Positions 3 through 59,712 of a stretch of 64,000 nucleotides of DNA are shown here, in pieces. Every line of letters starts with the position of its first letter. Positions within the stretch are counted from its first letter, which is position 1. Both the position numbers and the translations under genes were made by a program. The stretch comes from Piedraia hortae CBS 480.64 (lineage: Eukaryota), in the NCBI GenBank assembly GCA_010093745.1, contig MU005961.1:62001-126000 (forward strand), read 5' to 3'. The notes beneath the pieces are model-generated. The model was not told the DNA's origin. It saw nothing but the letters and a program-made list of their open reading frames with translations, and made no database searches.

Positions 3-3000
3 CATGCGAGCTATGCGGAGGTTGTGGCGGGTGATGTTGTCAGACATTGGCGGGAGAGCGCAGTCTCTGATGAGCTGTTAGATGATCAAGGGTTGAGTGA
101 TTACGTCGAGGATGTCAACGCTTCGTTGATGTTTGCGAGCGCCTTTTGCGATGCATTGCCTGATTTTGAGGAGTTGAAGCTGGCTTTAATGACGTGGGAA
201 AAGCTCAGTGAAAAGCAGATCAGCGACTTGGACAGCCTCGTCTCGCAGCTCAGAGCTCTCAGTGCGTGTCTGGCCGTCAAGGGAGATGAGAGTTTGAGAT
301 TGCGGGTGCTTCGATTGATATCAAGCCTGTGCAAGGGAGATGCTCTAGCATTGTGTGAACTGGCTGGGCAACATCTTGACTGCGGGTATGCGGAGAAGGC
401 GAGCGAGGTACTTGGACAAACTAAAAGGTCCGAGGATGAACTTGTCAATGCAAAAGTGCATCTAGCCCGGGCTCTGTGCCATCTTGAAAGTGGCCACGCC
501 GACAGCGCAGAGAAATCTCTGCAGGAGGCATTCCAACTACTTGAAGGAATTCGCAAGGAGGATAGGAAGACATACGACCTGCTCACCGTCGAAAGCTGGC
601 TTGTACAATCGTTATTGTGCAGAAAAATGGGAAAGCCGTATGATGCCCTCACAGCAGCCAAGAAATCGATGCAAATGATTAACACTCTCTGGGCAGCGAC
701 GGAACGGTCGGAAGGGCAGGTTATACCTCAGCCGCCTACGAAGTCGACGGAAGAAGTGGAAGTCGATCAACTCACGACGGGCGTCAGTAAACTTCAACTG
801 ACGCGGAAGCGTAGCGATCAGAGTGAAAAGGGAGCAGCATTTTGGCCTTTAGTCCCACTACTCTGTCGGACTTTGACTCAACTATCCAGCATGTATTCTT
901 TCCACGGCATTTTCGGCGATGCAGACTACTACCTCCGTCGTGTGGTAGACGTTTGCGAAGCACTGAAAGCGTCTCCATTGTTGCAGAAAGCACTCTGCCA
1001 CCGTGCTCGTCTGCTGACAATTGCGGATGACCTCGAACAGGCGGAAGTTTGTCTGACCAAGATATCTGAGTTGGGTGGTCTGACGGTGGATTATCATTGC
1101 GCAAAAGCCTTTGCTCGGACCAAGGGGGTTGACTCAAGTGAAGCGCTGAAGCTGTATGATGAGGCACTGAAACTGATTGACGAAATGGTCAAGCCGCAGG
1201 TTGCAGCAAGAAAGAAGTCCAAGAAAGCTGTCAAACCAGCTGAACCCATCCTCTTCCACGAAAAACGCATGACCATCAACCTCAACAAAGCCATCATCTC
1301 TTTACATCAAGACCAACCCGTCAACCTCGCCAACCTCCAAACAAGCACAACCTTCCTCGAACGCCGGGCGCACTACCTCCAACTCATGAACCAAGCCACC
1401 ACAGCCATCTCTTCGGACATAACATTCAGCATGCTCCCCGACTCCACCCTATCCATCCCCTCCCTCCCATCCAAAAAACCCACGCAACCCGCTCTAAAAA
1501 CCTACCTCTCCACCCTCCTCTCCGCAAAAAACAACCTGACCACCAACCGCGAAGCATTCCTCCCCCAACTTCCCACCACGGAAATACATACCGTCCATTC
1601 TATGCTCTCCCAAACAACATCCCTCCTCTCCCCCCTCACCCCTGCCTCAGCAGTAACCCTCGCCCTCGAAATCGACCTCCCAAAAATGCACGCCACACAG
1701 TCCACATCGTCACCCTACCTCCCCTTTCCCCCACAAACCCTCCTGTTATCCCTCACTCCCGCTGAATACCAAGAAAGAATCATCAACACCCTCCCCCAAT
1801 CGATATATGCAGTATCCCTAACCCTCTCCCACGATTCTACCGAGCTCTACGCAGTCCGCTATACACCGCACACCGACCCATTTATAATCCGCCTCCCTTT
1901 CTCACGGAGCGACTCTCCCTTCGATTATACGGAGGGGAGGAGGGTGCTGGAGGAGATTATCTCCCGCTCGAACGCGACGTGCCATTCGCAAAAGGGGAAG
2001 GCGAGGACATGGTGGGCTGAGAGGGAGAGGCTGGATAAGAGGCTGGGCGAGTTGGTGAGGGATTTGGAAAATATTTGGATGGGGGGTTTCAAGGGGATTT
2101 TTGATCCGCTCAGGGCGGTAGATGGGTTTAGGGGGGGATTTGAGGCTACGCTGCGCCGCTTCCTGGCGGGAGGGAAGGGAAGACTTCATGATGATGTGTT
2201 GGGGTTGTTCCTCTCCCTTGGGGAAGGCGATGAGGAAGGCATCCTGGATTTATTGTATTTTGTTGTTGACCTCTTTGTGCTGAATGGAGGGAGGGTCGCG
2301 TACGATGAGATCGATTTTGATGGCTGGGGTGCGGAGGTACTGGGGCTGGTTAAACGACAACAGGCTGAGGACGCTGCTGCGGAGCCGAGTAGGGATGCTT
2401 CGCCTCCGGAGCATTTGGTTTTGGTTCTGGATAAAAAGCTGCAGACCTTTCCATGGGAGAACCTCCCGTGTCTGCAAGGGAGGAGTGTTTCCCGCGTGGG
2501 GAGTATGCTTTCCCTACAACGCTGCGTGGCTGCTTTGCGGGAGGTTAGGAAAGATGGAGGGACGTATATTCTCAACCCCGCCGGCGATTTGGGAAATACG
2601 GAGAAAGTCATGCTGCCGCATCTAAAAGCTCTACATGACTGGGGGGCTTTAATTAGGGAGCCGCCGACGGAGGAGGGGCTAGTTGAGGCGCTGACGCGCT
2701 CGGAGATCCTCCTCTACTTCGGGCATGGATCTGCTGCGCAATTTATTCGACCCCGCAGAGTTAGGAGGCTGGAGAAGTGTAGTAGGGTTGTGTGGTTGAT
2801 GGGGTGTTCGTCTGGTTCGACGACGTTGTTTGGAGAGTTGGAACCTTTGCTCGTTCCGGAAGCGTATCTTACTGCGGGTGCACAAGCTGTGGTGGCGACG
2901 CTGTGGGATGTGACAGACAAGGATGTTGATCGGTTTTCGGTTAGGTTGGGGGGAGAGTGGGGACTTTGGGAGGATGGGAGAAAGAGGACTGCAGGGAAAG

Positions 3001-3113
3001 GTGAGATGAGTCTGGTGGAGGCGCTGGCGAAGAGCAGGGATGCGTGTTACTTGAGATATCTCAATGGCGCGGCGCCAGTGGTTTATGGGGTGCCGGTTTG
3101 GTTGGGGGACTGA
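3..3113 (+). CDS. ESP1: Separase/separin (peptidase C50), 5'-truncated by window edge
   Basis: Frame is open from the window start. C-terminal caspase-like domain has WWAERERLD, LVLDKKLQTFPWE, YILNPAGDL, catalytic His in YFGHG, catalytic Cys in LMGCSS, LWDVTDKDVD and YLNGAAPVVYG. Confidence 0.96.
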   Translation, partial: HASYAEVVAGDVVRHWRESAVSDELLDDQGLSDYVEDVNASLMFASAFCDALPDFEELKLALMTWEKLSEKQISDLDSLVSQLRALSACLAVKGDESLRLRVLRLISSLCKGDALALCELAGQHLDCGYAEKASEVLGQTKRSEDELVNAKVHLARALCHLESGHADSAEKSLQEAFQLLEGIRKEDRKTYDLLTVESWLVQSLLCRKMGKPYDALTAAKKSMQMINTLWAATERSEGQVIPQPPTKSTEEVEVDQLTTGVSKLQLTRKRSDQSEKGAAFWPLVPLLCRTLTQLSSMYSFHGIFGDADYYLRRVVDVCEALKASPLLQKALCHRARLLTIADDLEQAEVCLTKISELGGLTVDYHCAKAFARTKGVDSSEALKLYDEALKLIDEMVKPQVAARKKSKKAVKPAEPILFHEKRMTINLNKAIISLHQDQPVNLANLQTSTTFLERRAHYLQLMNQATTAISSDITFSMLPDSTLSIPSLPSKKPTQPALKTYLSTLLSAKNNLTTNREAFLPQLPTTEIHTVHSMLSQTTSLLSPLTPASAVTLALEIDLPKMHATQSTSSPYLPFPPQTLLLSLTPAEYQERIINTLPQSIYAVSLTLSHDSTELYAVRYTPHTDPFIIRLPFSRSDSPFDYTEGRRVLEEIISRSNATCHSQKGKARTWWAERERLDKRLGELVRDLENIWMGGFKGIFDPLRAVDGFRGGFEATLRRFLAGGKGRLHDDVLGLFLSLGEGDEEGILDLLYFVVDLFVLNGGRVAYDEIDFDGWGAEVLGLVKRQQAEDAAAEPSRDASPPEHLVLVLDKKLQTFPWENLPCLQGRSVSRVGSMLSLQRCVAALREVRKDGGTYILNPAGDLGNTEKVMLPHLKALHDWGALIREPPTEEGLVEALTRSEILLYFGHGSAAQFIRPRRVRRLEKCSRVVWLMGCSSGSTTLFGELEPLLVPEAYLTAGAQAVVATLWDVTDKDVDRFSVRLGGEWGLWEDGRKRTAGKGEMSLVEALAKSRDACYLRYLNGAAPVVYGVPVWLGD

Positions 3114-23021: not shown

Positions 23022-23054
23022 CGACGCGTCGCGACGCGCCCACAGCGCGACGTC
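23022..23054. promoter_or_regulatory. MCB-like (ACGCGT/CGCG) cluster in the divergent promoter upstream of SMC1
   Basis: cgACGCGTcgcgacgcg...cgcg lies ~40-70 bp before the SMC1 ATG. Cohesin genes are established MBF targets in yeasts. Confidence 0.55.
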
Positions 23055-23093: not shown

Positions 23094-26000
23094 ATGGGGA
23101 AGCTCATCGCGTTGGAGGTTTATGACTTCAAGTCGTACCGCGGTCATCATCGTCTGGTTGTGAGTCGTACGCTGGCTGACGTGTGGAGTTTGGACTGACG
23201 CGGACCAGTTTGGAGACAGCTACTTCACTTCAATTATTGGTCCCAATGGCTCCGGAAAGTCGAATTCCATGGACGCCATCTCCTTTGTGCTGGGGATTAA
23301 ATCTTCGCATCTCCGGTCAGCGCATCTGAGCGAATTGATCTATCGTGGGCGCGTTTTGAAAGAGTCCACCGTGGATGCCAATGGGGATGCGGTTGAGGGA
23401 GCGCAGAATGGCGACAGCGAAGGAAACGATCATGCGAACCATAACCCTACGACGGCATGGGTCATGGCCGTTTACGAAGACGATGCGGGTGAAGAGCAGC
23501 GTTGGAAGCGCACAATCACCTCGGCCGGACAGAGCGAATACCGCATTAATAACCGCGTTGTCACGGCGAAGCAGTACAACGAAGCGTTGGAGGCGGAGAA
23601 TATCTTGATCAAAGCTCGTAACTTTCTTGTCTTCCAGGGAGACGTTGAATCTATTGCGAACCAGAACCCCAAAGATCTTACGCGGCTGATTGAGCAGATT
23701 AGCGGGTCGCTGGACTACAAAGCTGAGTATGAACGTCTGAAGAATGAAAAGGAACGGGCAGATGAGGATCAGCATCACAAATTGAACCAGCGTCGTGGAA
23801 TCAATGGCGAGATTAGGCAATATCAGATGCAGAAAGAGGAGCTGGAAAAATACGAAAACTTGCGTGATGAGCGCGATGAGGCGATCGTTACCCATGTGCT
23901 GTGGAAGCTATTTCACTTCCAGCGTACCATTGAAGACAGCGCGGCCGAGTTCCAGAAACGCCAGGAAGAGCTGAAAGAGTTTCGACGAAACGTCAAGCAG
24001 TACGAGAACAAACTCAAGGATGCCCAGACGGAACAGGCCAAAGTCGGGCGGGAAGTCTCCAAGTACGAGCGTCAGATCAAGCAAAAGGAAAAAGATGCCG
24101 TTGAAAAGGAAAACGAGCTCGTGCCGATCGATGAAAAGCTCTCGTTCTCCCAAGACAGGCTGAGGACACACCAGCGGGTGTTGGCCAATATGGAGGGAGA
24201 ACGCAAAACGCAACAAAAGTCGGCTGCTAAGATGCAGAATGATCTAAAAACGGTTGAAAAGGCGCAGACGCGCTGGGAGCAAGAGTGGCGTGAACAGCAG
24301 AAGCAGACTGGGCGGGAGGTCAGTGCGGAAGATGTCAAGGAATATCAGCGTCTCCGCAGCGAGGTCTATAAACGATCTGGTCAGGATCAGATCAAGGTAG
24401 ACAACATTTCCCGCCAACTAAAGGCCGATGAGGATGCTGTGAGTAGTCTGAAGTCTAAAGTCGACAGCACAAAGGCTCAGGCGGGCAGTCTAGAGGCCGA
24501 GCTGGCCATGCTCCAGGAGCGTCGGACAGAACTGCAGGACGCCATGGACTCTACCAGCAGCCAGGTTGATGCCAAGAAAAAGTCGATTAACGCCCTCGCC
24601 AGTGAACGCGAGCGTCACAACCAAAGGCAGCGGGAACTGGAGGAGAAGTTGGTAGAAGTTCTCCGTCGACTACGGGATGCCACCGACTCTCAACGTGAAT
24701 CCCGTAAGGAGGCAGAACAGCGTGAGACGGTGGCCCAGCTGAAGCGTCTCTTCCCAGGCGTGCGAGGCATGATGCACCAACTCTGTAAACCCAAGCAGAA
24801 AAAATACGAGGCGGCCATTGTGACTGCCCTGGGCCGGGAGTGGGACTCTGTAGTGGTAGACACTGAGAAGGCTGCTCGTGATGCCCTCGACTACCTCCGT
24901 GACCAACGCATAGGTCAGATGCGGTTTATCCCACTCGACACCATCATCCACAAGCAGCCCAACTCCAACCTCCGCGGCATGCATCAGGGCATGCGTCTTG
25001 CCATTGATGTCATTGACTTTGACAGCAGCATCGAGCGGGCCATGAACTTTGCCTGTGGGAACACCATCGTTTGTGAGACGCTGCAGATTGCCAGACATCT
25101 CTGCTACGAACGCCATGTTGATGCCAAGGCCGTGGTGCTCGACGGGACTGTCATTCACAAAGGCGGCAACATGACTGGTGGCTCCGAGCCCAGCGAGAAG
25201 AAGAGGCGATTCGAAGAGTCTGAGGTCGAGAATTTGCGTGTCCTCAAAGACAAATTCCAAGCAGAGATGTCTGCACTGCCCAAAGGGCACAAGCGTCAGG
25301 CAGAGGAAGAGCAGCTTCGGTCTGATCTCAGTGGCTTGGAGGCCAAGTTGAAGTACGCCCAGGAAGAGCTGGCTGCTCTCGAACGCAATATCGAGTCCAA
25401 GTCGAAACTCCTGGGCCATGTGCAGACTGAACGGTCTCAGTTGAAGAAGCAATATGATGCTCAAACGCGTAGTCTTGAGACGCTACGCAATACCTATTCA
25501 GAACACAGTAATGCCGTCAAGTCGGTTGCCGACGAAGTCTTTGGCGACTTTTGTCGTCGACTGGGCTTTGGCAATATTGAAGAGTATGAGCGTCTACAGG
25601 GTTCTCTCGAGCAGGAAGCCGACCGGAAGAAGCTCGAATTTAGTCGGCAGATCTCCCGTCTGAAAAACCAGCTCTCGTTTGAGAATGAGCGGCTCGCCAC
25701 GACTACACAGCGCATTGAGGCTGAGCGGGCAAAGGCTAAACGAGATGAAGCCACAATTGAACAGCTGGAGGCCGAGCGTAAACGCATCGCTGCTGAGGAA
25801 GAAGAGTTGAAGTCTGAGCTGGAAGACCTGCGGGAAAGTCTGGCGGGCTTACAGAAACAACACGAACAACGAGGGGAAAAAGTCAACGAAACCCGCCGTC
25901 AACTCCAGAATCGCATCAAATCAGTAGACAAAACCGTTAAAGAAGCGTCGAACTACCAAGCCGAAGCGCAGCGAGCATCAACAGAGCGTTACGGCGTTCT

Positions 26001-26941
26001 CAAACGCTGTCAAGTGGAAAACATCACCATCCCACTACTCAGCACCAGCCGCGCACTCAACGAGCTCCCATCCGAAGACGCATTGATCGAAGACGTCGAC
26101 GAAACCGTTGACCTAGACGAAAGCGATGCAACCCATTGCAACGACTACGGCATGCACGTCGACTTCTCCACCCTCCCCGAGGACCTCGAAACCGACGGCT
26201 CTCCCGACCGCGAAGCCTCCCTCCTTGAACAAATATCCCTCCTAACCACCAGCCTCGAAAAACTCGCCCCAAACATGCGTTCCGCGGAGCGTCTCGCTGC
26301 AACCTCCTCCCGCCTCCAAGCCACCGATCGCGAATTCAAACAATCCACGCAAGCCAGCAAGCGCGCAACCAAAGAATTCGAAGCCATAAAGTCCCGCCGT
26401 CAAGAACTCTTCAACAAAGCCTACAAACACATCTCTCAACAAATCACTCCAATCTACAAAGAACTAACCAAAACACCCCATTTCCCCCTCGGCGGCTCCG
26501 CATCCCTCGATATCGAGGACGAAGTCGAGCCCTACCTCTCTGGGGTAAAGTACCATGCCATGCCGCCCCTGAAACGCTTTCGTGAGATGGACTCTCTCTC
26601 TGGCGGGGAGAAAACCATGGCCGCCCTAGCCCTCCTCTTTGCGATTCATACCTTTGCTCCCTCGCCGTTTTTTGTCCTCGATGAGGTCGATGCGGCGTTG
26701 GATGTGAATAATACTCAACAGTTGAGTGCGTATCTCCGCGCACATGCAGGGCCGGGGATGCAGTTTGTTGTTATTTCGCTCAAACAGGCGCTATTTCAGG
26801 ATTCGGCCAGCTTGGTGGGTGTCATGAAGGATCAGTCGGCTAATTCGAGTAGAGCTGTTACGCTTGATGTGAGTTTACACACACCGCTGGTGGGTGAGTT
26901 GCTGACAAGTGGTACAGTTGAGAAAGTATCAGTTTGGGTGA
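23094..26941 (+). CDS. SMC1: Cohesin subunit Smc1
   Basis: MGKLIALEVYDFKSY, Walker A IIGPNGSGKSN, hinge region, LSGGEK signature and LDEVDAALD. Introns 23160-23208 and 26869-26917; last exon LRKYQFG*. Confidence 0.97.
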
Positions 26942-27143
26942 ATGATTTGGGAAGGGGGGGTGTTTTTTTTTTCTCCAGTGAGCATTGCATTCGTGTGGGT
27001 GCACTTCTTGTAGTTGTAGAGAGGACGTGTTTGTTTCGGTCTCTATCCGTTTTTGATCTTTATCCATGTGCTCTCATTCGGTGTGGTTGAGAAAAGGTTG
27101 AATAGATTGGGTATATATTCCTTTCTCTTTTGATTAATCTACG

Positions 27144-29306: not shown

Positions 29307-30950
29307 GACTTTTGCGCAGGCGTCCCATTGGTGATCGTCAGAAGCGTGCAGACAGTGACGCACTGCAAGCAATAGGGAAGACGTCCAGTATAGGCAACGA
29401 TAAATGGGCATTAACCACCTCTGATTCTTGCAACCTCAGGGGAAAACCATCCTTTTCCTCGTCTGATTTACGAAGGGCATTGACCATGGGTGCTTCTTCA
29501 GATCGTGCCAATCCTCATCTAGTTCTGGTTAATCCAACCTCTATGCAGACGTCCCTGACGACCATCAAAAGCGTTCCCTCTGTGCTGTAATGCACACGGC
29601 GGGGAAGATCTCCAGTATAGGCATCGACGATGGCATCATTAAAAATCTCCCCTGCTTCCTTGCCCTGCGCTGGGATAATTTTGTCCATGGTGAAGTTTAA
29701 CAGACATTTTCGCAAGTGATGTTGTCCTCGAAAGTGTAGGAAGACCGCACTCTCTGCAGTATATATCGCCCTCGTCTTGCGATACTGCCCCTCTGCGGAC
29801 GATCTCGGGTCAACGCACTATGAAATGTCCGGAGGATGAGCCATAATCAATGTCTAGGACGCTCGATGGGTCTCCATTCCAGCGTCGTTCCTAGCTGTTA
29901 CGGGCTAGCCCTCTCGTCTCATGGTTGTCTTCTGAGTCTGGTCTTCAGAACAAAGTAGCTCCTCAGGTTCCACGCAAGAAAATCTTTCGCTCAGGCCTTG
30001 ATCTGTGCCCACTGCCAGTGCTTCAACCAATGGTTTGTTGCAACGTATAACTTTGTTTGATAGCCATATATTGAGAGATGCCGTGCTCGCGGCAACGGCA
30101 GTTCGTGTCCTCTATAAACTGCTTATGTGCTCATCCTTTAAACAATTCCCGTGCCTCTTCGATTGCGGGCCCAGATACCGGAACAGCTGTACAATCTGGT
30201 ATATTGACTCCGAGGTTAAGGGACAAGTCGCTGAGATCTTCGCCCGACTCAATTGTGTAAAGAATTATCAACTGACGCTCCAGGTGGACCGGGCCAGTGA
30301 AAGCTGGGAGGTGTTAGCACTCAAGCCATCTCCAGATGCCCGTAGCAGGGCATCCTTCAACCAACACTTGAGATGCAAGATGACTGTTAACTTGAGGCGC
30401 AGCATCTTACAACAAGCTGTCTATCGCAGCACAACAGGCGGCCGCTATCCTACCAACAAGTTCTTTGGCAGTGCCCGATGCAAGAGTTTTGGAGTAGCAG
30501 ATTAGGCCTCTGTGCGCGATGATACGAATTAGGGGCGAGGATCGCACGCTTGTATCATTGTCACTGTGCGCGAATTCCGGCGCGTCTGGAAAAGAGCGGA
30601 GCAGTTCTACCTGCCGCCTCAACTTGTTTGGAATGGTTCGAAGTGCATGTCGCGCGCACAAATCAAAGTTTTACACTAGCCGTAGTATGGTGCGGCCCGA
30701 AGCGGATCTGACAGAGTTTAAGTGGGGTCCATCAAGTCTCGCATTACTGAATCGACAAGATCTCACATTGCAAACTTCCCCGTCAGACCACCCCACTCCT
30801 GCGACTAGACCGATTCTGAACAACATATAAAGAAGGCAGAGGCAGAACACCAAACCTCATCTAATAGCAACCACGTCCGTGTTCCGTGTCCGCCAAGCCG
30901 GCCCGTCCCATCTCACCCCCCACCTGACGCGTCTCCCCCTCCACACAACA

Positions 30951-31532
30951 ATGTCCTCCCCACCGGTCGCGCAGCCTGCGCAGCCTAAACCCGGCTCGCG
31001 CGAATCCTCCCTCCGCTCTCTCTACGACAAAGCAATCACCTACATCCTCACACATACCTTCACCCTCGAAGCTCTGGAGACAAGCTTCCCCACCATCGCG
31101 TCCTACACGCCTCAGGCGCTCGCGAATTTACACGCGCAACTGGTCGGAAACCTCGAGCAACAGCTAAAAGACCACTTTGAGGTTATTCTACAGGAGAGGA
31201 ATGTGCCCACGTGGCTGGCGCAGTTGGATCGGGTTGTGGAGGAGGCGAGGAGGAGGAAGGGAGAGGATGAGGGAGGGGTCGTTCCGACTGCGTTGCATGC
31301 GCTTCCCGCGGAGGAGTTGGTGAAGGCACGCGTGCAGCCGGTGCTGAGTGGGTGTGAGGAGGAGTTGGATAGGAGGTTTGGGGTTTTGGAGGAGAGGGTT
31401 AGGGAGAGGTTTGAGAGAGTGGAGAAGAAGGGGGGGGAGGTTGAGGTGTTAATGAAGAGGATTGAGGGGGCGTTTGAGAGGGCGAGGGAGTTGGGGGAGG
31501 TGGGGGAAGCGGTTAGTGAGGGGGGGTTATAA
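30951..31532 (+). CDS. NNF1: MIND/Mis12 kinetochore complex subunit Nnf1
   Basis: PGSR...LR.LY.KAI......T.E.L...FP...F..IL.ERNV...LA.LD.VVEEARRR pattern followed by a coiled coil. ACGCGT lies at 30927-30932 just upstream. Confidence 0.8.
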   Translation: MSSPPVAQPAQPKPGSRESSLRSLYDKAITYILTHTFTLEALETSFPTIASYTPQALANLHAQLVGNLEQQLKDHFEVILQERNVPTWLAQLDRVVEEARRRKGEDEGGVVPTALHALPAEELVKARVQPVLSGCEEELDRRFGVLEERVRERFERVEKKGGEVEVLMKRIEGAFERARELGEVGEAVSEGGL

Positions 31533-56777: not shown

Positions 56778-57964
56778 CTACACAACCGCAAAAGCGCTGG
56801 CATAGCTGACGCTGCTGTCCCGTACCGATGAGACTTCTGAACTGCGTTCATACCGCACAAAGCGAAAAGTACCGCTTTGCAAGGTTTCCATTGCTGCCAT
56901 GATGACGCTGATGGGATGTCTCCCGCAGACAGTGTTTCCAGTGTCTTTTCATGGCATCAGTTCTGCATGCAGGGATTCCAAGACTAGGGATACACCTTAC
57001 CTTTCAACACGTCAACCCATTTGCTGAGCTTCCCGCTCTCGCAGGCTTCCATGCATTCTTCATCTACAGCTTTGATGCTCTCGTGGATGGGTGGGTCAAT
57101 GGGTTTGTGTGAGCTGGAGGTGAGATTTTGTGTTTTTCCACTCGACGGACGGTAATAAGTGTAATCGAATCGTAGACCCCAGTGACAGAAATCAGAGGAG
57201 ACGACAAAGGCCGTAGAAGGATCGGAAAGGTAGGGTGCAAGAAGCTTGCCGAGTTCCACCTCTGTTGAGGAAGATGTGTTGCCCACCATGATTGGAACAA
57301 GCAATGGAAACTTGGAGGAATCGTTGCCGAATGTTCTGTTGTTAGTCAGCCGAGTACTTTAAAGTCTGATTCAAAAACACATGCTGCGAAAAGAGTTTGT
57401 AAATGTACGGTAGGTGCATTTCTAGGCTATGTTCGGCCTCATCTACTGAGAGGGACATTGTTTCGAATTTTGAGGATTGCTGGAGCTCATCCGTCGTTTC
57501 TCGATCGATTACAAGATCGCCGAGGGGCGTGCTGTAATGCGTGCAGCCTGTTAAAGCAGCACGCCGGAGGTAGTGGTGATGGGATGGACCAAGAAGAAAT
57601 ACTCGTTTACTGGGATGGGTTAGGCCTTATGAAAGCTGATTGTAAGACAACTACTGACGCTTTGGAGACGTCCCAGGCCTTGTAAGCGTATGCCGCAGCC
57701 GGACCAGAATAAGCATAACCGGCATGGCTAGAGTAACTGAGTAAGAGGATGTAAGTATTTCAAAGCCACTTACGGCCCGATAATTACTCTTGCACCTGGC
57801 ACCGGTAGCTGAGTGACATTCTCGCTCTGTTTATGGTCAAGGCATGGTACTACTGGCGGGTCTACCGCGGCGAGCCACTCATCCAGTTCAGCATTAAGCT
57901 GAGACTTGGATGATTTGTACCAAGAACCAGCATGGCTGGGCCTGCGAACGGTATTTGTGGGCAT
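56778..57964 (-). CDS. MHO1: MEMO1 family protein (multi-exon)
   Basis: RRPSHAGSWY, IIGP|HAGYAYSG, FLLGPSHH, EHSLEMHLP, SSDFCHWG, TGNTVCGRHPI and DSSVSYAS. Several short introns, the first at 57728-57773. Confidence 0.93.
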
Positions 57965-58054: not shown

Positions 58055-58090
58055 ACGCGTTTGCGACGCGTGAGTTTATTACGCGACGCG
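58055..58090. promoter_or_regulatory. MCB cluster in the MEMO1 / zinc-finger gene divergent promoter
   Basis: ACGCGT at 58055-58060 and 58066-58071, plus ACGCGACGCG at 58081-58090. Confidence 0.6.
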
Positions 58091-58161
58091 CCCTGCCAAC
58101 CGAAACGAACTTCTTCTTTTCATACACCCATCTCTTTCCAGCAGCAATCACCACCGCAATT

Positions 58162-58770
58162 ATGGGCTTCAAACGCAAACGCGACTCTTTCTCAATACCG
58201 TCAGACTCAAGCAGCCCAGCGTCATCCACATCTTCATGGCTTCACAGCGATGACTATCTCATCAGTCGCACCATGAAGCGCCATCGCGACGACCGCCCAG
58301 CTGATAACACAGTCTATGGTGCGTCCTATTTGAGCGCAGAGTACTTTCACATGAGATCTCTTGCTGATGCATGTCGCAATGCAGCCCAAACCATGCAAAT
58401 ACTCTACGACGCCCAACGAGAACAACCTGATCGTCATTCCGCACCGCCATCTGCCCCTCCTCCTCTACGGCGCGCAATATCCGCCATGCCAATGAGCGGC
58501 CGCGGACCAATGTATACGCATCGAAACAATACACTACATTCCTTTTGGCACATCCAGAGCGAGGCTCCTCAGAGCGGTGCATCAACCCCAATGGATCTGG
58601 ACGAATCTATCAGTGGACCGCAGTGTCAAGATTGTGATCGGATGATTCCATGTGAGGGTGCTATGGATCTTGATGGCCAAGACTCGGCGTGTGGGGTATG
58701 TCAGAGGGTGGTCTGCAATCTCTGTGCGGTATCAGGCGATGTGAGGGTATGTTTGGTGTGTGTGCGGTGA
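58162..58770 (+). CDS. Conserved fungal zinc-finger protein (SIVA-like, see findings)
   Basis: KRKR NLS, RTMKRHRDDRP, in-frame 66-nt intron 58319-58384, NTLHSFW and four C-terminal CxxC pairs. Confidence 0.8.
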   Translation: MGFKRKRDSFSIPSDSSSPASSTSSWLHSDDYLISRTMKRHRDDRPADNTVYGASYLSAEYFHMRSLADACRNAAQTMQILYDAQREQPDRHSAPPSAPPPLRRAISAMPMSGRGPMYTHRNNTLHSFWHIQSEAPQSGASTPMDLDESISGPQCQDCDRMIPCEGAMDLDGQDSACGVCQRVVCNLCAVSGDVRVCLVCVR

Positions 58771-58983
58771 ATCAAGCGAACTGGTATGGTCTGAGCATGT
58801 TTGTCATTGCTCGCAATGTAGCATAGCAAAGCTGCGCTGCAAAGCGTTTCCATAATGTATACGTTCTCTTCCAACCTAATTTTTTCTCCAAGACATCTTC
58901 ACACAATTAAGCAACAAGAAATCGAAAAACCGTTACACGTCGCTGAGTATATTATCCACTACCCCGCTCTACGCACATGCAAT

Positions 58984-59069
58984 GGCCGACTGGTGTAGTG
59001 GTTATCACGTTTCGTTTACACCTCAGGAGGAATCCGAAAAGGTCGCTGGTTCGATCCCAGCGTCGGTCA
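58984..59069 (+). tRNA. tRNA-Val(TAC) with short intron
   Basis: Acceptor GGCCGAC/GTCGGTC, A-box TGGTGTAGTGG, anticodon stem TTTCG/CGAAA with TT-TAC-A, a ~13-nt intron and B-box GGTTCGATCCC. Confidence 0.9.
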
Positions 59070-59121
59070 ATCTCTTTTGCCTTCTTTTTGTCTTTCCAAA
59101 CTACAAAAACCTCAGACAAAC

Positions 59122-59712
59122 ATGTCTTCCAAGCAAAACTCCGACCACACAACCATGTCCGCCACAGACCAAAGCCCTGACCAAACAAACATGTCCACCA
59201 ACCAAAACACCAACCAAAACACCAATCAATTAACCACATCAACCAAACCAACATCACCAGAACCATTCAAACCCTTCTTCACCCTAATCCGCACCCCCTC
59301 AGGTGACGACGAAGAAGAATCCCACCCTAAAGTCCAATACATTTTCTCCGACGACGACACCAACCTCCTCACCGAATCCATCCTTACATCCATCGACCCC
59401 CATCAACCCTCCAACATCGAGAACCGATCAATTTTAATAGATATTTCCCCTACGGGTGAGGTAGAGAAGTGCGTTTCCCTCGCAAAAGAGTGGCAGGTTG
59501 TAGATACGGAGGTCAGGGAGTTGACGCCTTTGGAGGGAGAGAGGGGGAGGATGGTCACGATTTTTGGGGTGGGGATGGGGAAAGAGGGGAGGGATGGTAG
59601 GGATGCTTCGCGGAGGAGGGGGACGACGACGGGAAAAGGGAGGATTGAGGGTTTGGCGAAGGAGTTTGGGGAGGGGGTGGATTTATTGGGAGTTATTCTG
59701 GGAAGGGGATAA
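59122..59712 (+). CDS. Conserved fungal hypothetical protein (Atg31-like, see findings)
   Basis: 196-aa ORF with a low-complexity N-terminus, then PFFTLI...HPKVQYIFSDDD...SILIDI....V....SL...WQV. Confidence 0.75.
   Translation: MSSKQNSDHTTMSATDQSPDQTNMSTNQNTNQNTNQLTTSTKPTSPEPFKPFFTLIRTPSGDDEEESHPKVQYIFSDDDTNLLTESILTSIDPHQPSNIENRSILIDISPTGEVEKCVSLAKEWQVVDTEVRELTPLEGERGRMVTIFGVGMGKEGRDGRDASRRRGTTTGKGRIEGLAKEFGEGVDLLGVILGRG

Follow-up and report, generated by a model that had tools for sequence, protein, structure and literature searches.

SIVA1 and the recruitment of factors to PCNA

In animals, the recruitment of Rad6-Rad18 to PCNA via SIVA1, a CD27-binding protein of Pfam family PF05458, is well described. 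Mapping of the protein assigns RAD18 binding to SIVA1 residues 40-58 and a divergent PIP box to residues 83-96, in which the substitutions Q85A and I88A abolish PCNA binding, while the C-terminus carries two cysteine-rich, finger-like domains (Han et al. 2014, PMC4068132). The same portion of the paper gives the PIP consensus as QXX(M/L/I)XX(F/Y)(F/Y) and states a SIVA1 counterpart only for higher eukaryotes (Han et al. 2014, PMC4068132).

A sequence-only reading of the locus described below knew of no described fungal SIVA homolog. That none has been described is not quite right, since a published table files S. pombe SPBC26H8.13c under the label 'Siva family protein' and gives its conservation as Metazoa and Vertebrates, not Fungi (PMC9290682, accessible portion). 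Its overexpression leads to a longer chronological lifespan, the sole phenotype reported in the part of PMC8246873 at hand. A search of the literature on Siva in fungi and Ascomycota found this S. pombe report only and nothing on the filamentous-ascomycete family considered here.

The gene in question lies in a window of 64,000 nucleotides from Piedraia hortae CBS 480.64, the whole stretch of DNA that was analysed and the frame for all coordinates given here. It encodes a good, though unproven, candidate for a replication-clamp adaptor of SIVA1-like build.

Gene structure, transcript and neighbors

From ATG to stop the gene spans 58162-58770 on the forward strand and codes for a protein of 180 amino acids in two exons. 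Exon 1 (58162-58318, +) begins with the ATG at 58162 and holds codons 1-52 and the first base of codon 53; exon 2 (58385-58770, +) terminates in TGA at 58768-58770. The intron between them (58319-58384, +) measures 66 nt, is bounded by GT..AG, contains a branch-site-like GCTGAT and is both in frame and free of stops. Two records bear out this intron, which had been proposed from the letters of the DNA. The spliced translation is identical, letter for letter, to the 180-aa hypothetical protein K470DRAFT_255014 (NCBI) of Piedraia hortae CBS 480.64. A spliced contig of 712 nt from run X1 covers 58099-58876 (+) in the pieces 58099-58317 and 58384-58876, an extent that does not fix the true RNA ends, and its joint omits exactly 66 bases, GT..AG, corresponding to the proposed intron. 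Because this joint skips the same 66 bases, both transcription of the gene and its proposed splicing are confirmed, and at 58319-58384 the Piedraia contig has the spliced form alone. Run X1 is public and not on record as RNA, yet contains spliced contigs.

Several public gene models of orthologues (P0004, P0007, P0011 and P0034) read through the equivalent in-frame intron. Such read-through gives rise to a spurious 'conserved' peptide, ..LADVCR.AA.., that is in fact the branch site and the 3′ splice site.

On the other strand, a MEMO-family gene (56984-57964, -; PF01875) diverges from the zinc-finger gene across a common intergenic region of 198 bp. It too is represented by a spliced contig, which confirms its 46-nt intron at 57728-57773 (-). 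This contig stops at 57956 and so misses the first Met codon of the frame (57962-57964) by a few bases; either its end is cut short or a more internal start codon is used. Downstream, a tRNA-Val (anticodon TAC) occupies 58983-59070, beginning 107 nt past the end of the transcript contig; at 88 nt it has room for an intron. An open frame at 58999-59712 has 237 codons, is rich in Asn/Gln/Thr repeats and is without a Pfam match. Farther away in the window lies an SMC-family gene (23164-27090; SMC_N, SMC_hinge), and the same 64 kb hold genes for a separase (Peptidase_C50, 3-3113) and for the kinetochore protein Nnf1 (30831-31532).

The MCB promoter cluster

In yeasts, MCB-driven transcription at G1/S through MBF and Res-Cdc10 is established. 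A cluster of MCB elements is found at 58055-58093; it precedes the ATG by 69-107 nt and lies immediately 5′ of the point at which the transcript contig starts (58099). Two copies of ACGCGT, at 58055-58060 and 58066-58071 (-107 and -96 relative to the ATG), are followed on their 3′ side by two further CGCG cores within ACGCGACGCGCC, and the 12-mer CGCGACGCGCCC occupies 58082-58093. The hexamer ACGCGT occurs 19 times in the window against 11.7 expected, and the sole close pair is that at 58055/58066. At least four CGCG within 45 bp come together at two places in the 64 kb, of which this is one, where a uniform distribution would give 0.13. The other cluster (23025-23049) precedes the SMC open reading frame at 23164 by about 100-115 bp, and CGCGACGCGCCC is common to both, with two matches against 0.21 expected and none elsewhere in the window. 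The sequence-only reading had likened this promoter, with its two ACGCGT boxes and extra CGCG, to that of SMC1; the two share a 12-mer and have the only two such clusters in the window.

Related loci show the same tendency. Eighty of them were collected from metagenome contigs with a 20-row alignment, and the ATG could be placed by the N-terminal motif in 76; once duplicates and loci with under 150 bp of upstream sequence had been set aside, 56 were left, 52 of them with the full 300 bp. At least one ACGCGT falls within 300 bp upstream in 24/52 orthologous loci compared with 24/564 control windows, and at least two in 9/52 compared with 1/564, where the controls were drawn from the same loci, coding DNA included, and the locus counts are not independent events because the loci are phylogenetically related. 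The mean number of MCB core 5-mers is 2.83 in the 52 upstream regions and 0.41 in the 564 controls. Conservation of the upstream MCBs in orthologues, which the sequence-only reading had named as a check, is therefore observed, and the locus has the conserved ACGCGT within a few hundred bp upstream that characterizes an MCB gene. As the role of MBF and Res-Cdc10 is established in yeasts, we infer that the cluster would mean G1/S transcription of this gene. In Fusarium, ACGCGTC is among the most conserved promoter heptamers (PMC2853525, accessible portion).

The spacer is shared with MEMO, and it had been allowed from the outset that the MCBs could serve that gene instead. If the cluster served MEMO, or both genes at once, it would be uninformative on the zinc-finger gene. 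The geometry in Piedraia agrees with such an assignment, the cluster lying within the 198-bp spacer at about the same distance from both ATGs, as does the frequency of the head-to-head arrangement: MEMO is upstream in 44 of the 80 related loci, tandem downstream in 4 and not seen in 32, many of which are short-flanked. The position of the sites across loci argues against it. Every spacer of the 35 non-redundant head-to-head loci contains MCB cores (110 sites), and their distance to the ATG of the zinc-finger gene (median 125 nt, IQR 111-146, SD 40) is far tighter than that to the ATG of MEMO (median 174 nt, IQR 155-298, SD 111). Where the spacer extends to 533-815 bp, the sites follow the zinc-finger gene: 141-249 nt separate them from it, and 355-601 nt from MEMO. 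The cluster is also retained at four distinct loci (L038, L039, L041/L042 and L066) that lack an upstream MEMO, and in three tandem loci the 500 bp before MEMO contain between one and three CGCG cores, which are scattered, and lack ACGCGT. In the other loci of this kind among those listed, where MEMO is likewise not upstream, the cluster is weak or missing: L036 has no cores, L047 has one, and L045, L060 and L072/L075 have two or three apiece, for the most part at a distance of over 200 nt. Because the distance is tight, the sites stay with the zinc-finger gene in long spacers and the clusters persist without MEMO, the cluster belongs chiefly to the zinc-finger gene, and its assignment to MEMO or to both genes is improbable.

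A single lineage, comprising L045, L047, L060 and L075, combines a tandem downstream MEMO with zinc-finger MCB cores that are weaker and further off. This tandem MEMO lineage may reflect a rearrangement that changed the promoter.

A family of filamentous-ascomycete proteins

Once the intron is removed, the KRKR cluster, the helix stretch NTVYAQTMQILYDAQR, the NNTLHSFW motif and the cysteine pattern all stand where the sequence-only reading had placed them. The KRKR cluster comprises residues 4-7 (58171-58182, +) within MGFKRKR. A second basic cluster, RTMKRHRDDRP (58267-58299, +), is also encoded by exon 1, and its residues R36, T37, K39, R40, R42 and R45 are invariant in the family alignment.

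An exhaustive phmmer search returned 186 cluster representatives at E≤1e-3, of which 38 reached E≤1e-10, and a profile search returned 283 proteins at E≤1. The best 120 of these 283 come from Sordariomycetes and Dothideomycetes and bear names such as 'hypothetical', 'uncharacterized' and 'ORF21 protein'. They are without a Pfam domain except for two over-long gene models, one of them fused to a MEMO domain, and precomputed Pfam annotation places a Siva domain in none of the best 120. Its sequence thus places the protein in a filamentous-ascomycete family that is uncharacterised and without a significant Pfam match.

Alignments delineate four conserved blocks. The KRKR N-terminus has the consensus M-x-L-K-R-K-R-S. 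The RTRKRHRDNRP block, S-R-T-R-K-R-H-R-D-N-R-P in its full consensus, leads into the helix. The LHSFW block reads Q-x(2-3)-L-H-S-F-W, and the C-terminal finger with its eight cysteines reads C-E-D-C-D ... M-D-V-D ... C-x2-C-x-R-x-V-C-x2-C ... C-L-x-C. One apparent member, the 821-aa repeated finger protein P0048, was set aside as a false family match. In three others (P0130, P0131 and P0140) the basic clusters and the helix are present along with a fully canonical PIP box (Q-Q-T-L-x-K-F-F), and the gene models have no zinc finger, which may point to truncation of the models or to a subfamily devoid of the finger.

The PIP-box-like motif

The PIP-box-like NNTLHSFW is located by alignment at residues 100-107 (58525-58548, +). 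Among the short motifs of the family, LHSFW is the one most strongly conserved in the aligned sequences. Within the close subfamily L103, H104, F106 and W107 are invariant, and [LI]xx[FY][FWY] is present at the expected place in 277 of 286 distinct family proteins, a sample that leans to Sordariomycetes since its profile-search part consists of the best 120 of 283. The nine members without the motif are fragments, two divergent members and the unrelated repeat protein P0048. Glutamine is at the canonical position, giving Q-x-x-L-x-x-F-[WF], in 189/286 members, one residue further out (the QKSTLHSFW type) in 81/286 and absent from 7/286, Piedraia (HRNNTLHSFW) among them. In the Piedraia subfamily this glutamine is at least 90% conserved; Piedraia has R99 in its place, R99/N100 making up the Gln region.

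The motif had been put forward as a PIP box from a single copy with Asn in place of Gln, and a non-conserved motif had been named as the finding that would count against it. With the core kept in 277/286 members and the canonical QxxLxxF[WF] in 189/286, that objection falls away at the level of the family; the Piedraia copy itself is without the Gln. The form Q-x-x-[LIM]-x-x-[FY]-[FYW] in a disordered region, as expected of PIP clients, is thus found at the level of the family, in 189/286 members, and the Piedraia copy keeps its L, F and W. In the AlphaFold2 model the motif falls within a low-confidence linker (pLDDT 50-70), with a short helix at 103-106.

Two positions are held far more strictly than the PIP-box consensus demands: residue 5 of the motif is His in 265/277 members and residue 8 is Trp in 258/277, which may mean a different or an additional partner. 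A PIP degron requires Thr-Asp at positions 5-6. A degron was ruled out here, as these positions are His-Ser and a basic residue at +3 to +5 is absent from 185/277 members.

Helix and zinc finger

An AlphaFold2 model built with a 138-row alignment has a mean pLDDT of 70.6. Its conserved helix comprises residues 48-65 (58303-58422, +, interrupted by the intron), in a block with pLDDT of 85-95. The near-invariant residues T55, L59, A62 and Q63 of the alignments lie on one face of this helix, which may resemble the SIVA1 helix in sequence.

The C-terminal zinc finger extends from C133 to C178 (58624-58767, +). Its eight cysteines, C133, C136, C155, C158, C163, C166, C175 and C178, are arranged as CQDC followed by C-x2-C-x4-C-x2-C-x8-C-x2-C, and a conserved acidic MD(V/L)D loop separates the first and second cysteine pairs. 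Residues 130-180 are modelled with pLDDT of 90-96 except in this loop. The best structural match of the finger (residues 129-180) is Slp4 (5x6t; Z 5.6, rmsd 1.9 Å, 45 aligned), followed by RIM (2cjs_C, Z 5.1), FYVE domains (Z 3.9-4.5) and CARP2 (1y02, Z 3.3), the last of which is also matched by a PDB profile search (E 0.0024). A Foldseek search with the finger model gave no match at E≤0.001, and the likeness to fingers of the FYVE/RING type, though shared with many of them, is weak. The model therefore suggests that the finger likely adopts a FYVE-like fold; as these Z scores are in a range counted common, the fold class says little on function. Lipid-binding FYVE domains carry a basic, histidine-rich signature before the third cysteine. 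Residues 150-158 of the present finger, GQDSACGVC, do not show it, and at these positions acidic or neutral residues make up the family consensus.

Weak Pfam matches across 138 members were to C6_DPF, IBR, FYVE_2 and B-box, with C6_DPF reaching E≤1 in 28 of the 138 (best 0.0011). The top matches of the PDB profile search were C2H2 arrays (E 4.7e-6, several stretches), which were read as CxxC periodicity and not as kinship. Among the 36 listed matches of the same search there was no Siva-named chain.

Possible kinship with Siva

The order of modules, with a basic N-terminus, a helix, a PIP motif and a cysteine-rich C-terminus, had been likened to that of SIVA1 and agrees with the mapping in the available text of PMC4068132. 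Profile searches did not link the two families. The Siva profile PF05458 gave no match to the spliced, unspliced or exon-2 protein at E≤10 (hmmscan), and across 138 members it was absent from the 25 listed of 64 families at E≤1 and from the 25 listed of 27 at E≤0.06, a negative that holds at the level of single sequence against profile. A search with five short fragments for proteins of Siva length (38-177 aa) returned 37 matches, all of them family members or fragments with no Pfam domain.

Embedding-based look-ups in the ESM Atlas point the other way, with values below the tool's bar that count as leads. For P0003 the nearest named family was Siva (0.79; TM 0.26 in the structure row); for P0012 Siva took the top three places (0.77-0.78) and made up 9 of the ten best matches with a family. 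These two proteins, both nearest to Siva, share 36% identity. A chytrid-rich cluster is also among the Siva look-alikes, again as a lead. Annotated fungal Siva proteins raise the prior for a divergent counterpart in filamentous fungi. Kinship of the fungal family with Siva is accordingly plausible and unproven, with odds close to even. By analogy of build, the family is probably a divergent filamentous-fungal counterpart of SIVA1; that it is the missing filamentous-fungal orthologue, having kept an ancestral canonical PIP box, is a more tentative proposal.

Proposed function and alternatives

Of the SIVA1-like adaptor put forward in the sequence-only reading, the module order, the conserved PIP-type motif and the MCB cluster stand, and the match to PF05458 does not. 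The reading preferred here, with a probability of about 0.55 and drawn from the sequence features above, is that of a nuclear PCNA client expressed at G1/S and built along the lines of SIVA1, in which the helix and the FYVE-like finger would bring in one more factor. MBF-type factors acting on the MCB cluster would switch the gene on at G1/S, yielding a small, predominantly disordered and presumably nuclear protein that the two basic clusters would carry into the nucleus. Going by the motif, Q-x-x-L-H-S-F-W may then dock on PCNA as a short helix that fits its hydrophobic pocket. The client-binding end would be made up of the conserved helix together with the two-zinc finger of FYVE-like fold, and would bring to the clamp another factor, which by analogy with SIVA1 could, speculatively, be Rad18.

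The principal alternative takes LHSFW as a docking site for some other partner, or as a structural element, in a nuclear FYVE-like finger factor that is unrelated to PCNA and has come to resemble Siva and PIP boxes by convergence. The near-invariant His5 and Trp8, exceeding what a PIP box requires, fit this account, as do the glutamine that is out of register in 81/286 members and missing from 7/286 including Piedraia, the absence from 185/277 members of the basic residues commonly seen after a PIP box, and the generic nature of the zinc-finger matches. The account sits poorly with a full consensus in 189/286 members, with a motif that lies in a disordered linker, where the model gives it a short helix, and with a conserved MCB cluster of the replication type like that of the SMC gene; it is possible, at odds well short of even. 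A stricter version of the clamp-adaptor idea would make the protein a true SIVA1 orthologue, in which the helix binds Rad18, the PIP motif binds PCNA and the two together promote monoubiquitination of PCNA-K164 after UV or MMS. Module order and spacing are as mapped for SIVA1 in the accessible part of PMC4068132, Siva is the nearest named family in the two ESM Atlas leads, and Siva is annotated in other fungi, in S. pombe SPBC26H8.13c (PMC9290682, same portion) and the chytrid-rich cluster. Set against this are the lack of a Pfam Siva match, the statement of a counterpart only in higher eukaryotes and a finger with fewer cysteine pairs than the two cysteine-rich domains of SIVA1, the last two judged by the description in the available text of PMC4068132. 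Orthology in this strict sense, which is argued by analogy, is doubtful. The PCNA client of SIVA1-like build is hence the reading carried forward.

Implications

Should the Siva relationship be true, a Siva-PCNA(-Rad18) adaptor would belong to the old opisthokont equipment for DNA-damage tolerance, with its expression controlled at G1/S. This would contradict the 2014 view, as given in the available text of PMC4068132, of the Siva adaptor as an addition of higher eukaryotes, and would open it to genetics in Neurospora, Aspergillus or Fusarium. Hundreds of 'hypothetical' proteins of filamentous ascomycetes gain a precise hypothesis, that of a G1/S-expressed, Siva-built candidate PCNA client, and particular residues are singled out: L103, F106 and W107 of the motif, the helix face T55/L59/A62/Q63 and the eight cysteines. 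Even without Siva kinship, the periphery of the fungal replisome would gain a member, namely a new and conserved PIP-box protein whose gene is controlled through MCBs.

Comparison with known systems

The promoter resembles that of the SMC gene in its four CGCG cores and ACGCGT upstream of the start, and the 12-mer is common to both. It differs from the MBF-controlled G1/S genes of yeasts in that MBF regulation in Dothideomycetes is inferred from those yeasts. Among zinc fingers, the closest structural matches of the fungal finger are FYVE-type, Slp4-RIM-rabphilin and CARP2 fingers; unlike lipid-binding FYVE domains, it is without the basic His-rich stretch before the third cysteine. As a putative PCNA client, the family resembles known PIP-box clients through the consensus in 189/286 members, the disordered linker and the modelled short helix, and departs from them in having Trp rather than Phe/Tyr at the last position (258/277) and a fixed His at position 5.

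The closest parallel in overall build is SIVA1, as described in the available text of PMC4068132. The fungal protein is likewise small, with a helix, a PIP-type motif some 35 residues further on and a cysteine-rich, zinc-binding C-terminus; helix 48-65 is in a place matching the RAD18-binding residues 40-58, and the position of the motif corresponds to SIVA1 residues 83-96. Differences are found in each part. The fungal PIP motif is canonical, with aromatics, whereas that of SIVA1 is divergent; the fungal finger is one compact eight-cysteine unit, compared with two cysteine-rich domains by description in SIVA1; the fungal proteins add the N-terminal KRKR and RTRKRHRDNRP clusters; and the fungal family has no PF05458 match. 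In S. pombe SPBC26H8.13c, a fungal protein is already filed under Siva (PMC9290682, accessible portion), so that Siva is not confined to animals.
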